Under the pieces are notes generated by a model. It had not been told where the DNA came from and ran no database searches. It was given only the letters and a program-made list of their open reading frames with translations. A DNA stretch of 11,961 nt, taken from NCBI GenBank assembly GCA_031459875.1, contig JAVKHQ010000055.1, positions 1-11,961 of the forward strand, written 5' to 3'. Below, one piece after another: positions 1,429 through 9,882 of the stretch. This stretch comes from Candidatus Fervidifonticultor sextus. Its GTDB lineage: Bacteria > Sysuimicrobiota > Sysuimicrobiia > Sysuimicrobiales > Humicultoraceae. Position 1 is the stretch's first letter; each line of letters begins with the position of its first letter. The translations under genes and the position numbers were made by a program.

Positions 1429-2530
<1,102 letters not shown>

Positions 2531-2677
2531 TTATGCCCGGCCTTTGTTTTTTGTAGACTTCTCCGCCCAGCCATAGAGTCCGTCGATTGATAGTGGACCC
2601 GAAGACCGGCGGCAGGACCGCCAGGCTCCTCCAACATCTTTGCAGGTGGATGATCAGCAATTACAGGCAAATTTGCA

Positions 2678-2705
2678 AGAGGAATAGCAATTATAACCGA
2701 AGAAT
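2678..2705 (+). promoter_or_regulatory. sigmaH-like promoter upstream of the small peptide gene
   Basis: AGAGGAATA-12 nt-GAAGAAT fits the Bacillus sigmaH consensus RNAGGAWWW-(11-12)-RNNGAAT. It lies in an AT-rich island about 47 nt upstream of the ATG. Confidence 0.5.
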
Positions 2706-2752
2706 CCCCGAGCCTGGAGCTCCCCAAAAACCCCCGTGGTAAGGAGGACGCC

Positions 2753-2887
2753 ATGAAGAGAGCGCTTCGCATCGTGGCGGCGGTCGTCGCCGCCGTCCTG
2801 TTGATCGCCGCCTCACCGATGTTCGTCCCGGCCGACGGGCCCACGCAGGTGCGCGTCGCAGGGGGCGACGACGCGGACGGAGGCTAA
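2753..2887 (+). CDS. Small secreted propeptide (44 aa), candidate RRNPP-type signalling peptide precursor
   Basis: Absent from the ORF track. SD TAAGGAGG 2740-2747, ATG 2753, TAA 2885-2887. MKRALRIVAAVVAAVLLIAASPMFVPADGPTQVRVAGGDDADGG has a basic N-region, a hydrophobic H-region and a short polar tail. It is adjacent to an HTH-TPR gene. Confidence 0.8.
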   Translation: MKRALRIVAAVVAAVLLIAASPMFVPADGPTQVRVAGGDDADGG

Positions 2888-2983
2888 ACACCGAGCAATC
2901 GAGTCGGTGATCGCGTGATTCGGTGCTGAGGAGGGAAGCCGGGCGGCCCGCGCAGGCGCCGGACGGGGGGCTCCTAGGCTCTA

Positions 2984-3012
2984 TTGCCTGTCCGGGGAGG
3001 CTGTGGTAAATT
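2984..3012 (+). promoter_or_regulatory. sigma70/sigmaA promoter of the HTH-TPR regulator (near-leaderless transcript)
   Basis: TTGCCT (2984-2989), 17-nt spacer, TAAATT (3007-3012) with extended -10 TG at 3004-3005. The ATG is only 9 nt downstream and has no properly spaced SD. Confidence 0.6.
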
Positions 3013-3021
3013 ACCTCCACA

Positions 3022-4404
3022 ATGGCTAAACCCTCCTCCGCACCTTCTCGCCTGCGGCAACCCGAGTGGCTGCGCCAGTTCGGACGGCGGCTCAGAGCCG
3101 CGAGGGCCCGGGTCGGGCTCACCCAGCAGCAACTGGCCGCGCCGGACCTCAGCAAGAGTTTCATCAGCCTCCTGGAGAGCGCCCGGTCGTACCCTTCGGT
3201 CGAGACCGTCATCGCACTCGCCAAGCGGACGCACACGTCGCTGGCGTCCCTGCTCATGGATCCCAGCGACCTGCGGCTCGAAACGGCCCTCAACCTCCTC
3301 CACCTGGCCTGGACCACGGATCCCGCCCGCCACAGCGCCGATGCCCTGCACCTGGTGGAGACGGCAGAGATCCTCCTGCCCGATATGCCGGCGGAGTTGC
3401 GGGTGCGCTCGATGCTGGTGCGCAGCCGCGTGGCAATGGCCACGGGCCACGTGCACGATGCCGCGCAGATGGCCGATGAGGCGGCCGCGCTCGCCCGCCG
3501 CCTGCGCCTCGGCGGCGCACTGTGTCGCGCGCTCACCCTCAAGGGCGTCGTCCTGGGGCGTCGGGGGGAGTTCCAGGCCGCCATCGAGACACTGGACGAA
3601 GCCCTCAGGCTCATGCGGCGGACGCGGTGCGGCGACTCGGAAGAAGCGGTATGGGCCCTGCTCTCCACGGGCGCGGCTCAGAGGCAGACCGGTCAGGTGG
3701 AAGGCGCCCAGACCTCCTATCAGCGGGCGCTGGAACTGGCCACATCCCTGGGACTCGCGAAGATGCGCGGCCGCGCCCTCACCGGACTCGGCATGGTGGC
3801 ATGGTCGCGGCAGCAACTCGACCTGGCGGTGGACTTCTTCAGCCAGGCCTACAGGGTGTTCGAGGAACTGGAAGACCTCGCCGAAATGGGACGGGTGCTC
3901 AACAACCTTGGGCTCGTCCGCCGGGCCCAGGGGCTCTATGACGAAGCCCTCTCCGTGCTCAACGCGGCCCTCCGGCTCAGGGAGCGCGAAGGCGACGTCC
4001 GCGGCCGCAGTTCGACCCTCGACGAACTCGCGCAGGTGCTCCTCGCCCTGGGCCGGGCGGAGGAAGCGGCCGGCGCGGCCCGCCAGGCGGTCGCCGACGC
4101 CGAGGCCGTGGGCGACCAGGCCCGGCGGGCCGTGGCGCAGGTGACGCTGGCCCGCGTGCTGCGGGCGCAGCGGCATCAGGCGCAGGCCGCAGACCTGCTC
4201 CGGGAGGCCGTGGCCACCCTCACCCGGCTGAACATGACCCCGGAAGTCGCGTCCGCTTCCGCGGAGTTGGGGCTGCTGCTCAGAGAGACCGGCCAGCGGG
4301 AAGAGGCCGTGGACTACTTGGCCAGGGCCCTGACCTTCGCCAGCCACGCTCCCGCGCCCCCTGGGGACGTCGCCAAAGACCTGGACCCGCCGGACGGGAC
4401 GTAG
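3022..4404 (+). CDS. XRE-family HTH plus tetratricopeptide-repeat transcriptional regulator (NprR/PlcR-like RRNPP architecture)
   Basis: The N-terminus FGRRLRAARARVGLTQQQLAAPDLSKSFISLLESARSYPSVETVIALAKR is an HTH_3. The remainder is about 40-aa TPR-like repeats (ALTLKGVVL...A, ALLSTGAAQ...A, ALTGLGMVA...A, VLNNLGLVR...A, TLDELAQVL...A). Confidence 0.9.
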   Translation: MAKPSSAPSRLRQPEWLRQFGRRLRAARARVGLTQQQLAAPDLSKSFISLLESARSYPSVETVIALAKRTHTSLASLLMDPSDLRLETALNLLHLAWTTDPARHSADALHLVETAEILLPDMPAELRVRSMLVRSRVAMATGHVHDAAQMADEAAALARRLRLGGALCRALTLKGVVLGRRGEFQAAIETLDEALRLMRRTRCGDSEEAVWALLSTGAAQRQTGQVEGAQTSYQRALELATSLGLAKMRGRALTGLGMVAWSRQQLDLAVDFFSQAYRVFEELEDLAEMGRVLNNLGLVRRAQGLYDEALSVLNAALRLREREGDVRGRSSTLDELAQVLLALGRAEEAAGAARQAVADAEAVGDQARRAVAQVTLARVLRAQRHQAQAADLLREAVATLTRLNMTPEVASASAELGLLLRETGQREEAVDYLARALTFASHAPAPPGDVAKDLDPPDGT

Positions 4405-4490: not shown

Positions 4491-4838
4491 GTGGTCGTGA
4501 AGCCGCTGCGGTACCGGACGGCCCCCCACCTCCAGGCCCTCTGCGACTACGACCACAAGACCATCACCATCCAGGTACCCGAGCCGTTCCGGCCGTTCCG
4601 GCAGCGCATCCCGTACCGGGCCCGGCGGATCAAGACGCGCGCCGCCCGGGGAGACCCGTTTGCCTTCCGCTGGTTCTACCGTGACGTTCTCTTCCGCACC
4701 AAGACGGACGTGATCCGGTTCCTCTACTGCCACGAGTACTACCACTACTACCTGCACGACGTGCTGGGCAGGAAGGGTGCCGCGGAGACGGCCTGCGACC
4801 GGTTTGCCCTGGAACACTTCAGGCGCCGAACTCCCTGA
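4491..4838 (+). CDS. Small HExxH zinc-metallopeptidase-like protein (ImmA/IrrE-like motifs); true start may be upstream, about 4407
   Basis: FLYCHEYYHYYLHDVLGRKGAAETACDRFAL contains HExxH plus a downstream E-x-x-C/A-D/N-x-FA helix. Codon usage is strongly GC3. The frame stays open upstream to the stop of the regulator. Confidence 0.7.
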   Translation: MVVKPLRYRTAPHLQALCDYDHKTITIQVPEPFRPFRQRIPYRARRIKTRAARGDPFAFRWFYRDVLFRTKTDVIRFLYCHEYYHYYLHDVLGRKGAAETACDRFALEHFRRRTP

Positions 4839-6322: not shown

Positions 6323-7582
6323 ATGAAAACAGTCGAACAGGTGATGACCCGCGACGTGGTCACCATCGGCGCGGGCAGGACGGTGGCCGAGGCCATTGCG
6401 TTGATGCTCGACCGGGAGGTCGGCGTGCTCCCGGTCATCGAGGATCACCGGCTCGTCGGCCTGATCACCATCCGCGATCTCCTGCGGGCCCTCCCCTACC
6501 GGCCCGTCAGCGAGGTCATGCCGAGGGACCTTGTCACCGCCGCGCCCGAGATGCTCATCACCACCGCGTATGCGCTGATGGAGGAACGGCGGCTGGCCCA
6601 GCTCCCGGTGGTCGAGCAGGACCGGCTCGTCGGGCTCATCACCCGCGAGGACATCCTCCGCGCCCTGGGCCGCCCGGTCGATCCGCTCACGGATCTCCCC
6701 TGGGTCGTCACCCTGCGCGAGCGCGCGGTGGAGCTGCTCAAACAGGGCCATGAGATCGCCATCATCTTCCTGGACCTGGACAACTTCGGCCTGGTGAACA
6801 AGCGGCTCGGACACGTGGTTGGCGATCAGTACATCCGGGCGGCCGCCCAGGCGCTGGGGCGGACGATCGACCGGTCGAAGGACCTGCTCTGCCGCTACGG
6901 CGGCGACGAGTTCGTCATCCTGACGACGCGACCGCGGACGGACGCCGAGGACCTGGGCCGACAGGCGGCCAGGGCCGTCGCCCAGGCCCGTCCCGAAGGC
7001 GCCACGGACGAGTTCGTCCTGAGCGCCTCGACGGGCATTGCCGGGGGCAAGCGCACCACCGAGCGCCACGACATCCACTTCGCCGCCACGGTGGACGACC
7101 TGATCACCATGGCCAGCCTGCAGTCCACCGAGGCCAAGATCGAAAAGGCCAGGAGCCTCCCCTACCTGGGCGAGCTCCGCCCGGCGGCACAGCCCAGGCT
7201 GCAGCTGCGCCGCGTCAGCCTCACCGCACAGGGCCCGGAGGCCGCCGCGGTGGTGGAACTCGGGCTGGGCGACGCACGCTACCTGGGAGAGGCCCGCGGG
7301 CCCAATCTGGGCACGGTGCCGCTCCGGTCGGTGGCCGAAGCGACGCTGCGCGCGGTGACTCAGGCGCTGCGCGGCGGGTGGATGGCGGCTGTGGATGACG
7401 TCTACCTCGTCCGCACGTCGGCCGAGACGCTGGTGGCCGTCACCGTGCTGCTGGGGAAGGCGGGGCTTCCGCCGGAGCGCCACACAGGAACTGCGGTCGC
7501 CGACGCCGACCCTGGTTCGGCCACCGCGCGGGCCACACTGCACGCCATCAACCGCCGGCTCGGCAAGATCCTCTCGGGGTAG
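6323..7582 (+). CDS. CBS-CBS-GGDEF diguanylate cyclase with a C-terminal LeuA-regulatory-like domain
   Basis: Two CBS repeats (VMTRDVVTI...LPVIEDHRLVGLITIRDLL; VMPRDLVTA...LPVVEQDRLVGLITREDIL). GGDEF motifs DPLTDLP, FLDLDNF, N...GHVVGD and RSKD-LLCRY-GGDEF. The C-terminus has two beta-beta-beta-alpha-like repeats ending AEATLRAV and ARATLHAI. Confidence 0.9.
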   Translation: MKTVEQVMTRDVVTIGAGRTVAEAIALMLDREVGVLPVIEDHRLVGLITIRDLLRALPYRPVSEVMPRDLVTAAPEMLITTAYALMEERRLAQLPVVEQDRLVGLITREDILRALGRPVDPLTDLPWVVTLRERAVELLKQGHEIAIIFLDLDNFGLVNKRLGHVVGDQYIRAAAQALGRTIDRSKDLLCRYGGDEFVILTTRPRTDAEDLGRQAARAVAQARPEGATDEFVLSASTGIAGGKRTTERHDIHFAATVDDLITMASLQSTEAKIEKARSLPYLGELRPAAQPRLQLRRVSLTAQGPEAAAVVELGLGDARYLGEARGPNLGTVPLRSVAEATLRAVTQALRGGWMAAVDDVYLVRTSAETLVAVTVLLGKAGLPPERHTGTAVADADPGSATARATLHAINRRLGKILSG

Positions 7583-7622
7583 GCACCCCGCGCCCGCGAC
7601 GTCTGGGAGGGCACGCAGCGCC

Positions 7623-8495
7623 ATGGCCACGTCGGTCAGCGTCTTCGGACTGGGCATCATGGGCCGTCCTGTGGCCCGCACCCTGGTCGCCCGCGGCTTC
7701 GACGTGCGGGGGTGGAACCGCTCGGCGCTGCCGGCCGATCTGGTCGAGGGGATTCCGCTCGCCCCGTCCCTGGAGGAAGCCGCCCGCGCCGAGGTCCTGC
7801 TGCTGATGCTCGCCGACTCGGACGCGGTGGACGCGGTGCTCGGCCGCCTAGACCCGACGCTGCGGCCCGGCCACCTGGTACTGGACATGGGATCGTCGGA
7901 CCCCTTGCGCTCGGAAGCCCACGCGCGCCGGCTCGCCGCCCGGGGCATTGGCTGGGTGGATGCGCCGGTCTCCGGCGGTCCGGAAGGCGCCGCGGCCGGA
8001 TCGCTGGCCATCATGGCCGGCGGTGACCCGGAGGATTTCGCCCGCGCCAGGCCCGTCCTCGAGGCGCTGGGCGGCAACGTCGTCCGCGTGGGCGGCCCGG
8101 GCGCCGGGCACACCGTCAAGATCATCAACCAGTTGATCGTCGGGCTCACCATCGAGGCCGTGGCCGAGGCCCTGACGCTGGCCGAGCGGTCCGGGATCGA
8201 CCCGCGCCTCGTCCAGCAGGCCCTGCGCGGCGGGTTCGCCGACTCCAAGATCCTGCAGATCCACGGCACCCGCATGATCCACCGGGCCTACGTCCCGGGC
8301 GGGAAGGTGACGACGCAGCTCAAGGACCTGCGGCTGGCGCTGGCTCTGGCCGCGCGCCTGGGGCTACGGCTGCCCCACCTGGAGAGCGCCGCGGCGCGCT
8401 ACGACGCCCTGGTCAGGCAGGGCGACGGGGAGCTGGACCACTCCGCGCTGCACAAGCTGCTCTGGCAGGAGCACGGCGGCGCCACCGACCCATAG
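7623..8495 (+). CDS. NAD(P)-dependent beta-hydroxyacid dehydrogenase (2-hydroxy-3-oxopropionate reductase / 3-hydroxyisobutyrate dehydrogenase family)
   Basis: GLGIMG Rossmann motif, WNRS, DAPVSGG, catalytic KIINQ, KDL. Start set at ATG 7623 with SD GGGAGGG upstream. Confidence 0.92.
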   Translation: MATSVSVFGLGIMGRPVARTLVARGFDVRGWNRSALPADLVEGIPLAPSLEEAARAEVLLLMLADSDAVDAVLGRLDPTLRPGHLVLDMGSSDPLRSEAHARRLAARGIGWVDAPVSGGPEGAAAGSLAIMAGGDPEDFARARPVLEALGGNVVRVGGPGAGHTVKIINQLIVGLTIEAVAEALTLAERSGIDPRLVQQALRGGFADSKILQIHGTRMIHRAYVPGGKVTTQLKDLRLALALAARLGLRLPHLESAAARYDALVRQGDGELDHSALHKLLWQEHGGATDP

Positions 8496-8554
8496 CGCCG
8501 TGACGGGGCGGGCGGGGGCGCCGGCGACCCGTAGGCCGTGACGGGTCGGGCGGG
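8478..8554 (+). repeat. Degenerate tandem duplication (39/38 bp) spanning the dehydrogenase stop codon
   Basis: GGCGCCacCGACCCaTAGcGCCGTGACGGGgCGGGCGGG (8478-8516) versus GGCGCCggCGACCCgTAG-GCCGTGACGGGtCGGGCGGG (8517-8554): 4 mismatches and 1 indel. Confidence 0.8.
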
Positions 8555-8598
8555 AGCGTGGGATACTGGGGCCAAAGAGTGATCGGGAGGCCTCCTCG

Positions 8599-8814
8599 AT
8601 GCGCCTCAGCGTCGCCCTCGTCGTCATCGCAGCCGCCCTCCTGGTGGCGGTGAGCACGGTGGTCCACGGCGGGCTCTACCAAGTGGTCAGCGCCGGCCCC
8701 GAAAGCGCCTACCTGGTGCACCGGCTGACCGGACGGATCTGGTTCATCACGGGGACGACCTCGCACCCGGTGCGGGCCGCCCCGCCGGAGACGGAGAAGG
8801 ACTTCCGGAAGTAG
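8599..8814 (+). CDS. Small hypothetical exported or membrane-anchored protein (71 aa)
   Basis: SD GGGAGG 8585-8590. Hydrophobic N-terminus MRLSVALVVIAAALLVAVS followed by a small beta-rich domain (YQVV...AYLVHRLTGRIW). Confidence 0.7.
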   Translation: MRLSVALVVIAAALLVAVSTVVHGGLYQVVSAGPESAYLVHRLTGRIWFITGTTSHPVRAAPPETEKDFRK

Positions 8815-8998
8815 GGCGGACGGATCTGACTCCCCGCTGGCCTTGCACGGAAAGGGGTCGCAGACAGCGGGACGAGCCGGCGGTGGAACCGGAGGACGGC
8901 CCGGGCGTCGACGGACTCGGCCTCCTCCCTTACTGCCCAGCGCGTCGAAGGACCGGCCTCGCGCGGGCCACGTCTCCCGGCGCCCCGCCAACCATGAA

Positions 8999-9064
8999 CT
9001 GGTGACCCAGGGCGACGGCGATCTCCATCACTCGGCACCGCACAAGCTGCTCTGGCAGGGATGA
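8999..9064 (+). pseudogene. Orphan diverged copy of the dehydrogenase 3' end
   Basis: 8999-9059 matches 8409-8469 at 50 of 61 nt, with the last 20 nt identical. LVTQGDGDLHHSAPHKLLWQG* versus LVRQGDGELDHSALHKLLWQE. Confidence 0.8.
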
Positions 9065-9075
9065 CCGGCCGCCTC

Positions 9076-9115
9076 TTGTAGCGCAGAGCCAACGGGTTAG
9101 ACTAGACTAGACTAA
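9076..9115 (+). promoter_or_regulatory. Toxin-antitoxin promoter/operator: (TAGAC)x3 quasi-palindrome over the -10 box
   Basis: TTGTAG (9076-9081), 16-nt spacer, TAGACT (9098-9103). TTAGACTAGACTAGACTAA (9097-9115) is both a 5-bp tandem repeat and a near-palindrome. Confidence 0.55.
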
Positions 9116-9135
9116 ATTCAGGTTGGGGGCGTGGT

Positions 9136-9372
9136 ATGAGGACGGTCAACGTTCACCAGGCCAAGACACATCTCTCGCGCCTGCTGGACGACGTGAGCAC
9201 TGGGGAAGAAATCGTCCTGGCCAAAGCCGGCAGGCCCGTCGCCCGCCTGTCGCCAATCCAGGGTGCGTCGCGACGGCGCCTCGGTGCCCTCCGCGGCCGC
9301 TTCACCGTGCCCGTAGACTTTGACGCCCCGCTGCCAGAGCGGGTGCTCGCCGCCTTCGAGGGCCGCCGCTAG
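9136..9372 (+). CDS. Type II antitoxin, Phd/YefM family
   Basis: MRTVNVHQAKTHLSRLLDDVSTGEEIVLAKAGRPVARL...RRLGALRG...DFDAPLPE is a classic Phd-type antitoxin of the kind paired with PIN toxins. Confidence 0.93.
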   Translation: MRTVNVHQAKTHLSRLLDDVSTGEEIVLAKAGRPVARLSPIQGASRRRLGALRGRFTVPVDFDAPLPERVLAAFEGRR

Positions 9373-9806: not shown

Positions 9807-9882
9807 GGGCCCGTAGCTCAGTGGATAGAGCAGGGGACTCCTAAGCCTCTGGTCGGGGGTTCGATTCCCTCCGGGCCCGCCA
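9807..9882 (+). tRNA. tRNA-Arg(CCT)
   Basis: Acceptor GGGCCCG/CGGGCCC, D-arm GCTC-AGTGGATA-GAGC, anticodon loop CTCCTAA, T-arm GGGGG-TTCGATT-CCCTC, discriminator G and encoded CCA; 76 nt. Confidence 0.95.

Follow-up and report, generated by a model that had tools for sequence, protein, structure and literature searches.

Predicted propeptide and receptor genes of the window

The window, by which we mean the whole stretch of DNA analysed, is an entire 11,961-bp contig (C51) of Candidatus Fervidifonticultor sextus, whose genome comprises 3.05 Mb in 67 contigs, is 96% complete and has a GC content of ≈70%. On its plus strand, a small open reading frame (ORF) at positions 2753–2887 encodes 44 residues, and after a gap of 134 nt from the end of its stop codon, on the same strand, follows a gene (3022–4404) for a 460-residue protein with an XRE-type helix-turn-helix (HTH) and tetratricopeptide repeats (TPRs). 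An earlier reading of the letters, the original prediction, had proposed these two genes as a candidate RRNPP-type pair, consisting of a secreted propeptide and its receptor. Direct reading of the sequence confirmed the coordinates that it had given for the ORF, its Shine–Dalgarno (SD) sequence, the gap, the receptor, the receptor motif VLNNLG and the peptide GGDDADGG. Its description of the host as very GC-rich and not a member of the Bacillota was also correct: the genus has been placed in candidate phylum CSP1-3, there named Sysuimicrobiota (PMC11604079), the genomes of which carry the NCBI label Armatimonadota. The host lies outside Bacillota and Bacillota mobile elements, unlike described RRNPP hosts. 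In a search of sequencing runs, the stretch was present in four DNA runs of hot-spring metagenomes, all belonging to a single study and one of them perhaps its source. A single match to Omp85/BamA (115 bits) was found in the genome, and since such matches were found only in diderms among the control genomes, the host likely has an outer membrane.

The small ORF starts with ATG, and its product has the sequence MKRALRIVAAVVAAVLLIAASPMFVPADGPTQVRVAGGDDADGG. An SD sequence, TAAGGAGG (2740–2747, plus strand), ends 5 nt before the ATG, and GGAGG-type SDs also stand ahead of the homologous small ORFs in other loci. The GC contents at the three codon positions (GC1/GC2/GC3) are 0.76/0.51/0.87, to be compared with 0.77/0.51/0.87 for the receptor gene. 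For a wider search, small ORFs were filtered for a length of 30–60 residues, an SD and an N-terminal hydrophobic stretch, and a hidden Markov model (HMM) was then built from the matches. Just 24 ORFs in the whole genome (3.05 Mb, both strands) passed the filter, corresponding to 0.0011 expected per 290-nt window. The ORF at 2753–2887 (plus strand) matched the HMM with an E-value of 5.7e-17, and a run of the HMM against the 36,232 small-ORF candidates of the genome picked out two places only, the window ORF (5e-16) and one on contig C23 (2e-7).

Close pairs of homologous propeptide ORFs differed mostly at third codon positions: the differences at positions one, two and three were 1/2/8 for L001/L010, 1/0/5 for L057/L058, 3/4/14 for L039/L063 and 8/4/21 for L026/L087, with ratios of non-synonymous to synonymous differences per site (pN/pS) of 0.16, 0.08, 0.21 and 0.28, respectively. 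When a profile of 21 propeptides was run against a library of 1.84 billion representative proteins, 29 matches were returned at E ≤ 0.001, all of them 43–46 residues long and matched at full length. The peptide had been called unannotated, which stands in so far as neither Pfam nor NCBIfam gave a match for it, but its 29 relatives were already present as predicted proteins in that library. Given the coding-type GC3, the low chance rate, the conservation across loci described below, the third-position bias and the library relatives, the sequence evidence indicates that the small ORF belongs to a family of conserved and translated genes that is under purifying selection and has no Pfam or NCBIfam model.

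The first 27 residues of the propeptide (2753–2833, plus strand) form a putative Sec signal peptide, assigned heuristically and with a predicted cleavage site at its end, that consists of an n-region MKRALR, a 14-residue h-region IVAAVVAAVLLIAA and a c-region SPMFVPA. Lys and Arg occur within the first 6 residues, the 12-residue window starting at residue 7 has a mean hydropathy of 3.38, and VPA follows the core. This resembles the profile used for filtering RRNPP propeptides, which has basic N-terminal residues and a long hydrophobic centre (PMC10075063). Across the family, 1–3 basic residues among the first six are followed by a hydrophobic run of ≈14 residues, often ending in Ser/Thr-Pro, a variable linker of 8–12 residues, a hydrophobic-x-hydrophobic-Ala/Ser site (such as VRVA, VQIA, WQKA or LKVS) and a C-terminal tail of 8–9 residues. 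With 44 residues here and 40–50 across the loci, the propeptides are within the 10–100 residues of the RRNPP signature.

The tails fit the pattern D/G-x-D/E/N/G-x-P-x-G-G, in which positions 2, 4 and 6 vary, with D, A, G, P, M, L, W, F, V and H seen at position 4, and P5 and G7–G8 are nearly fixed; GGDDADGG departs from it in having Ala as its fifth residue. In four propeptides the tail is present twice (AGDTWPGGG in L057 and L058, AGDVGPGDS in L056 and APELPGEN in L035), and the duplicated unit begins at or just after the Ala and ends at the protein end. Because the tandem duplication marks exactly that unit, the tail of 8–9 residues is presumably the functional part of the protein. Several pheromone copies per propeptide have been described for RRNPPA systems, including phage Rap–Phr (PMC11343458). 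The C-terminal octapeptide GGDDADGG (2861–2884, plus strand), which follows V-R-V-A and aligns with the duplicated unit, is the predicted mature signal; the original prediction had named this peptide or a part of it, and the duplications support that choice. Tails are identical in close relatives (L001/L010, L039/L063 and L015/L017) while the signal peptide diverges, and they differ between more distant receptors, making the tail the most lineage-variable part of the propeptide.

In the receptor, Pfam matched HTH_31/HTH_3 at residues 19–75 and TPR_12 (E 1.7e-34), TPR_2 (1.1e-22), TPR_MalT (7.3e-18) and TPR_1 over residues 133–441, placing the TPRs C-terminal to the effector domain, as in RRNPP receptors. 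The length of 460 residues, and of mostly 430–483 for the complete homologues in the loci, falls in the 250–500 range of that family. An AlphaFold2 model built with 92 sequences had a predicted local distance difference test score (pLDDT) of 94.3 and a predicted template modelling score (pTM) of 0.87. It shows a five-helix XRE HTH (residues 15–78) followed by 18 helices that make up nine TPR-like pairs (81–442). The best fold matches were LGN (Z 31.0), Pins (30.1), RapI (29.0, 352 residues aligned) and peptide-bound phi105 Rap (28.4), followed by RapH (24.8), pLS20 Rap (24.6), NprR–NprX (4gpk, 24.6, with 338/343 residues aligned), MalT domain III (23.4), PlcR–PapR (2qfc, 21.8, over model residues 17–299 with the HTH included) and AimR (19.2 and 18.1). 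The predicted fold would suit an RRNPP-type receptor, without discriminating it from other TPR proteins.

No Pfam or NCBIfam model specific to a subfamily (Rap, Rgg, NprR, PlcR, PrgX, AimR or ComR) matched the receptor. The receptor found 164 homologues among predicted proteins at E ≤ 0.001; those named, among the 120 of 164 matches listed, were described as TPR proteins or transcriptional regulators from Armatimonadota metagenome-assembled genomes (MAGs). Its relatives in public records were from Ca. Fervidifonticultor, Armatimonadetes bacterium CSP1-3, Ca. Calidihabitans and Ca. Geohabitans, and one Candidatus Fervidifonticultor record had a receptor 95% identical to that of the window. Residues 292–297 read VLNNLG, which we take to be an ordinary TPR_12 family pattern; the homologue consensus is RVLxNLGLV. 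The Asn pair in this helix had been offered as an argument for peptide binding, and we give it no weight, since it lies in a generic TPR_12-type repeat and in only one of the nine. A complex prediction for receptor residues 80–447 with propeptide residues 15–44, both entered as alignments, scored 0.11 against a mark of 0.32, a result that weighs neither way.

Conservation and diversification of the pair

With the receptor as query, we searched 94 genomes from its phylum-level group, of which 45 matched at E ≤ 1e-40, and examined 52 receptor-homologue loci (L001–L003, L010–L038 and L039–L058). A homologous small ORF was found in 26 of the 52, from 23 genomes, always upstream of the receptor gene on the same strand and 69–172 nt away from it, where 0.0011 per locus would be expected by chance. 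This is the adjacency of propeptide and receptor seen in RRNPP systems, with the 134 nt of the window falling inside the range. Receptor identities across the peptide-bearing loci ranged from 29 to 95%. According to the original prediction, a lack of neighbouring small secreted ORFs near the receptor homologues would have spoken against the pair; they are present at these 26 loci, and the gene order it had remarked on, with the peptide gene upstream in the same orientation, was seen in every one. One locus, L031, had just 137 nt of upstream sequence, so that the presence of a peptide gene cannot be judged there. Two of the peptide-bearing loci, L024 and L028, came from genomes flagged as unpublished (G024 and G016), and the conclusions are independent of both.

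A quick IQ-TREE tree was made from 50 receptors, leaving out L024, which is cut by a contig end, and L050, which has 305 residues. Peptide-bearing loci fell on both sides of the deepest split, and the presence of the peptide gene required 5 changes on the tree, compared with 17 for shuffled labels. The groups without a peptide gene were a clade of 15 (family f3), paralogues in the genus of the window, a clade of three, and L012.

Two of these show what a receptor without a peptide gene looks like. The locus L012 (G007:C39) is missing ≈130 nt, including the propeptide ORF, relative to its sister L013; it keeps the promoter box, both arms of the RNA helix and the receptor promoter described below, and is a natural receptor-only derivative. 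In the genome of the window, contig C1 (224122–225495) carries an orphan receptor paralogue, L002, which is 53% identical and lacks a propeptide gene in the surrounding 1.5 kb. This paralogue is part of a peptide-less clade present in every examined genome of the genus. Orphan receptors have been discussed as possible "eavesdroppers" (PMC9765709).

The same genome holds a second cassette, L003, on contig C23, with the peptide gene at 7775–7897 and the receptor gene at 7960–9252. Its propeptide has 40 residues, the tail ADHGGGEAFG and the same SD sequence, and its HTH–TPR receptor is 29% identical to that of the window. A CSP1-3 MAG likewise has two cassettes, L079 and L087. More than one cassette per genome, clades of orphan receptors and a loss of the peptide gene, as in L012, are all typical of RRNPP systems. 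Beside six weaker TPR paralogues of the window genome, L004–L009, no such small ORF was found.

Among the 91 of 129 flanking ORFs that were scanned, no gene was conserved across clades. The neighbours varied by clade and included Memo, histidine kinases, MFS transporters, GNAT, aldehyde dehydrogenase and gamma-glutamyl transpeptidase. Because the flanking genes are not kept beyond close relatives, the peptide and receptor genes together appear to be the conserved unit. Some neighbours were related to peptides: a gene for SBP_bac_5 lies directly downstream in L013, one for an Opp-type ABC ATPase upstream in L039 and one for a subtilase upstream in L019. The search for an Opp importer that the original prediction had called for gave 42 genomic matches to SBP_bac_5 (OppA/DppA family), of which 40 exceeded the cut-off, providing candidate oligopeptide permeases for re-import. 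With 42 such matches in the genome, the adjacency of one SBP_bac_5 gene is weak evidence.

Regulatory sequences and other features

Two copies of AGCAATTA, 30 nt apart, lie ahead of the propeptide gene at 2656–2663 and 2686–2693 (span 2655–2693, plus strand). The motif occurs only four times in the 3.05-Mb genome (both strands), two of them here. L010 and L014 retain both boxes, the second of which forms a perfect 8-1-8 palindrome in L014, ATAGCAAT-T-ATTGCTAT. The repeated box is likely an operator, and is our candidate for that of the receptor. A perfect palindrome within the same region, GCAAATTTGC (2667–2676), was considered as an operator and rejected, being lost in the 95%-identical relative L010. 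A promoter-region box, AGGAATAGCAATTATAACCGAAG (2680–2702, plus strand), is conserved ahead of the propeptide gene in the loci of clade A, with the consensus AGGA(A/T)TAGC..T(A/G)TA..GAA at ≈50–75 nt upstream of the peptide ATG; its full 12-mer, AGGAATAGCAAT, is unique in the genome.

In the minimum free energy (MFE) fold of 2700–2990, the small ORF is enclosed by a long-range helix of 9–14 bp that closes the structure. Its 5′ arm (2710–2725, with the core GGAGCTCCCC at 2716–2725, plus strand) lies in the 5′ untranslated region of the propeptide gene and pairs with the 3′ arm (2965–2981, core GGGGGGCTCC at 2965–2974, plus strand). The placement of the helix and the complementarity of its arms are conserved. 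The 3′ arm lies 55–90 nt past the stop codon and, in 13 of 16 clade-A loci, ends 46–47 nt before the receptor ATG. The arms differ by clade yet remain complementary, G–U pairs included: GGAGCCCCC/GGGGGCTCC, GCGGGTCCCC/GGGGACCCGC, GGGGCGCGGGCGGC/GCCGTCCGCGCCCC and CGTGAGAGCCCTC/GAGGGCTCTCACG. The arms were out of register in a MAFFT alignment of the transcripts, and the helix was tested by an ungapped-helix score with re-pairing controls. The mean score of cognate arms was 27.6, compared with 21.7 ± 0.8 for random re-pairing among loci, and none of 5000 re-pairings reached the observed value. For the second cassette on contig C23 (L003) the helix was unsupported, with a score of 18. The conserved helix probably stabilises or processes the peptide mRNA. 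A G-rich box, G(A/G)GGAGGG followed by (A/C/T)(A/G)GCC, is conserved in clade A 20–50 nt past the propeptide stop codon (≈2905–2960); it resembles a strong SD and has no conserved start codon after it. A GC-rich hairpin follows this box, just before the 3′ helix arm.

The receptor gene appears to have a promoter of its own (2984–3012, plus strand), made up of TTGCCT (2984–2989), a 17-nt spacer and TGg-TAAATT (3004–3012). In clade A this is conserved as TTGC(C/T)T...TGGTA..T at a fixed distance from the receptor ATG. With just 9 nt between the end of the −10 element and the ATG, and no SD, the receptor mRNA would be effectively leaderless, and the receptor is probably made from this transcript. 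A scan of 2500–3100 for consensus promoters (threshold 9/12) called no sigma-70-like sites; the receptor promoter escaped it because it matches 8 of the 12 consensus positions.

Other features were seen elsewhere in the window. A c-di-GMP-I-GGC riboswitch (RF03167; 69.8 bits, gathering score 59) at 2439–2513 on the minus strand points away from the cassette, toward minus-strand ORFs at 2036–2410 and 1429–2016 (DUF7305), and its promoter must share the intergenic region 2520–2700 with that of the propeptide gene. The window also carries a CBS-GGDEF diguanylate cyclase gene (6323–7582, plus strand), which overlaps a HIBADH-like ORF (7395–8495, plus strand) by 188 nt; the overlap is probably an ORF-calling artefact, because the Pfam match of the dehydrogenase begins at residue 81 and the true start would lie downstream. 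Just after the receptor gene, an ORF at 4491–4838 (plus strand) encodes 115 residues with a coding-type GC3 of 0.91, an HExxH-like motif (HEYYH) and no Pfam or NCBIfam match. We considered its product as the processing protease and rejected it, since the gene is not conserved beside the cassette; only the first 23 residues were found in L010, where a Memo-family gene follows directly after them. Further downstream are a Phd/YefM-family antitoxin ORF (9136–9372, plus strand; 1.5e-9) and a tRNA-Arg(CCT) gene (9807–9882, plus strand).

Probable peptide signalling and competing explanations

Four of the five features of the published RRNPP signature (PMC10075063) are present at the locus, and the fifth, Sec export, is consistent with the sequence as judged by eye. 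Considering also that the tail is specific to lineages and sometimes duplicated, that some genomes carry more than one cassette and that orphan receptors occur, we regard RRNPP-like signalling as the best explanation. The pair is probably a two-gene RRNPP-like peptide signalling cassette, likely representing a new receptor and peptide family outside Bacillota. The proposal of an RRNPP-type pair thus gained support from the conserved adjacency, the purifying selection and the lineage-variable tail.

If this reading is correct, the 44-residue product of 2753–2887 would be exported via Sec by means of its N-terminal signal sequence, and a cut after the hydrophobic-x-hydrophobic-Ala site, as suggested by the duplicated units of its relatives, would free GGDDADGG. 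The peptide would then build up outside the cell, be re-imported by an Opp/Dpp-type transporter and bind the cytoplasmic regulator encoded at 3022–4404, on the concave face formed by its nine TPRs. Binding would alter the interaction of the regulator with DNA, the likeliest site being the repeated AGCAATTA box in the propeptide promoter, and the result would be autoinduction.

Among known systems, the closest in architecture are NprR–NprX and other HTH-9TPR members of RRNPPA (AloR and AimR types), which, like the window receptor, combine an XRE-type HTH with nine TPR-like repeats; the "HTH-9TPRs" architecture and the distinction between five- and nine-TPR folds are described in PMC12700828. 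The cassette shares with the NprR–NprX type a receptor of 250–500 residues adjoining a small propeptide gene, a basic and hydrophobic propeptide N-terminus and a C-terminal signal, and the receptor model matches the folds of both NprR–NprX (Z 24.6) and AimR (Z 18–19). It differs in that the window receptor lacks membership at the sequence level, no RRNPP-specific Pfam or NCBIfam model having matched, and in its host, a CSP1-3/Sysuimicrobiota bacterium with ≈70% GC and a BamA homologue. The gene order differs as well: in the named RRNPP systems the peptide gene is typically downstream of the receptor gene or divergent from it, whereas here it is upstream on the same strand. Moreover, the octapeptide tail is rich in Gly, Asp and Pro, a conserved helix brackets the peptide mRNA, and the receptor transcript appears to be leaderless.

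Rap proteins provided the best bacterial fold matches (RapI and phi105 Rap), and Rap–Phr systems share the Sec-type propeptide with a C-terminal pheromone, tandem duplicated pheromones and orphan receptors. However, where the window receptor carries an HTH, Rap proteins begin with a three-helix bundle and have proteins, not DNA, as their targets, and the sequence similarity is marginal (E 1.6e-3). In PlcR–PapR, as here, an XRE HTH is followed by TPRs, but PlcR has five repeats where the window receptor has nine, and the chemistry of the tail differs; PlcR is activated by an imported C-terminal fragment of the secreted propeptide PapR (PMC6568020). LGN/Pins and kinesin light chain share TPR_12-type repeats with the receptor and, in the case of LGN/Pins, are closest to it both by sequence and by fold (Z 31). 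They are eukaryotic scaffolds without an HTH or a paired secreted peptide gene, and the resemblance reflects the type of repeat, not the system.

Several observations weigh against peptide signalling. By sequence, the closest solved proteins in the PDB were the TPR domains of LGN/Pins (E 1.9e-13), along with kinesin light chains; in that search RRNPP proteins were represented by Raps alone, namely RapF at 1.6e-3 and another Rap at 5.8e-3. Because LGN matches the fold at least as well as Rap and NprR do, homology of the receptor to RRNPPA is not established. The Sec signal was assigned by eye alone, and the h-region, together with its flanks, might instead serve as a membrane anchor. The near-invariant P-x-G-G end is conserved beyond what would be expected of a pure specificity code, and may have another role. 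Contrary to the other close pairs, the propeptide ORFs of L017 and L018 are separated by four changes that are all non-synonymous; one of the four is in the tail (DGDMGGGL versus DGDMGDGL), and the signal specificity may have changed recently. A peptide gene was absent within ≈1.5 kb in 26 of the 52 loci, the clade of 15 among them. No Opp gene was consistently linked to the pair in the 91 flanking ORFs scanned, the AGCAATTA box was found at no other promoter in the genome, and no RNA run matched in the search of sequencing runs. Lastly, since the host has a BamA/Omp85 homologue, the signal would cross an outer membrane twice.

Some of these points would also fit a small protein that is secreted or membrane-anchored and has its own job, at the surface, in metal binding or in the envelope, with the HTH–TPR protein either regulating it or merely co-inherited and sensing some other ligand. 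The acidic D-x-D-x-P-x-G-G tail with its near-invariant end could be a functional motif, the candidate operator is confined to the promoter of the peptide gene itself, the importer is not consistently linked and the host probably has an outer membrane. However, the part of the 44-residue protein outside the signal amounts to ≈17 residues, leaving little room for another function, and the tail is the most lineage-variable part, yet identical in closely related loci. Duplication of the tail alone, orphan receptors and multiple cassettes are the pattern of pheromone systems (PMC9765709, PMC11343458). We consider this explanation, the main rival, unlikely.

A small ORF upstream of the receptor gene on the same strand, bracketed by a conserved, covarying RNA helix and encoding a C-terminus rich in Pro, Asp and Gly immediately ahead of its stop codon, might also be a Sec-dependent regulatory leader of the SecM/CutF kind, in which translation or stalling at the Pro/Gly-rich end controls the receptor through the helix. 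This seems improbable to us, because the receptor gene is preceded by a conserved promoter of its own, which ends 9 nt from the ATG, and lacks an SD to mask, and because the 3′ arm lies 55–90 nt past the stop codon in clade A, beyond the reach of a terminating ribosome. In addition, the tail varies by lineage, which a motif for stalling in the unvarying tunnel of the ribosome should not do, and the internal tail copies in L057 and L035 are not beside a stop codon.

It is less probable still, and in our view very doubtful, that the small ORF is the precursor of a ribosomally synthesized and post-translationally modified peptide (RiPP) or a bacteriocin, with the TPR protein as regulator or scaffold of the pathway. 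The precursor is short with a variable core, and the best NCBIfam match of the receptor is the RiPP-associated model HaaA_phane_TPR, but at 70.5 bits against a cut-off of 1125 this match reflects generic TPRs. No modifying enzyme, dedicated transporter or immunity gene was conserved beside the pair in the scanned flanks; the N-terminus is Sec-like and not that of a RiPP leader, and the core has no Cys, Ser or Thr pattern. That the small ORF is a chance open frame is effectively refuted: GC-rich genomes are rich in spurious ORFs, with 87 of at least 40 residues in these 12 kb alone, but none of that accounts for the coding GC3, the chance rate, the conservation in 23 genomes, the third-position bias and the 29 full-length relatives.

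Peptide signalling of the RRNPP(A) type has been regarded as belonging to Bacillota, together with the phages and plasmids they carry (PMC10075063, PMC9765709, PMC12700828), and a search of 13,513 RefSeq genomes with RRNPPA profiles is reported to have found it in Firmicutes only (PMC9765709). Our literature search, with subscription-only papers outside its scope, yielded no report of RRNPP(A) beyond Bacillota, Armatimonadetes included, and the word "quorum" does not occur in the paper on the CSP1-3 phylum (PMC11604079). In the cassette described here, the circuit logic is known; the receptor and peptide family, the phylum, the envelope type, the gene order, the peptide chemistry and the RNA bracket would be new.

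A wider reading is that peptide quorum sensing through cytoplasmic receptors extends beyond the monoderm Bacillota, and that CSP1-3/Sysuimicrobiota runs its own family of HTH-9TPR receptors and propeptides with a D-x-D-x-P-x-G-G code, either as a sister group of RRNPPA or as an independent invention; on the genomic evidence we find the case for and against this evenly balanced. The same even judgement applies to what this reading would include, namely pherotype-like diversification, duplicated pheromones and orphan "eavesdropper" receptors in thermophilic hosts that bear an outer membrane.

Whether the ancestor of RRNPPA had nine or five TPRs is described as open, and an outgroup from remote structural homologues as needed to settle it (PMC12700828). 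The HTH-9TPR family of the window is a concrete candidate for such an outgroup, and if it is an ancient sister group of RRNPPA, it could serve as the missing outgroup that roots the RRNPPA tree. If the signalling function is true, the range of peptide communication would widen to a distant, GC-rich, probably diderm and uncultured phylum, and ≈40 natural peptide–receptor pairs with a simple octapeptide code would become available for studies of specificity.

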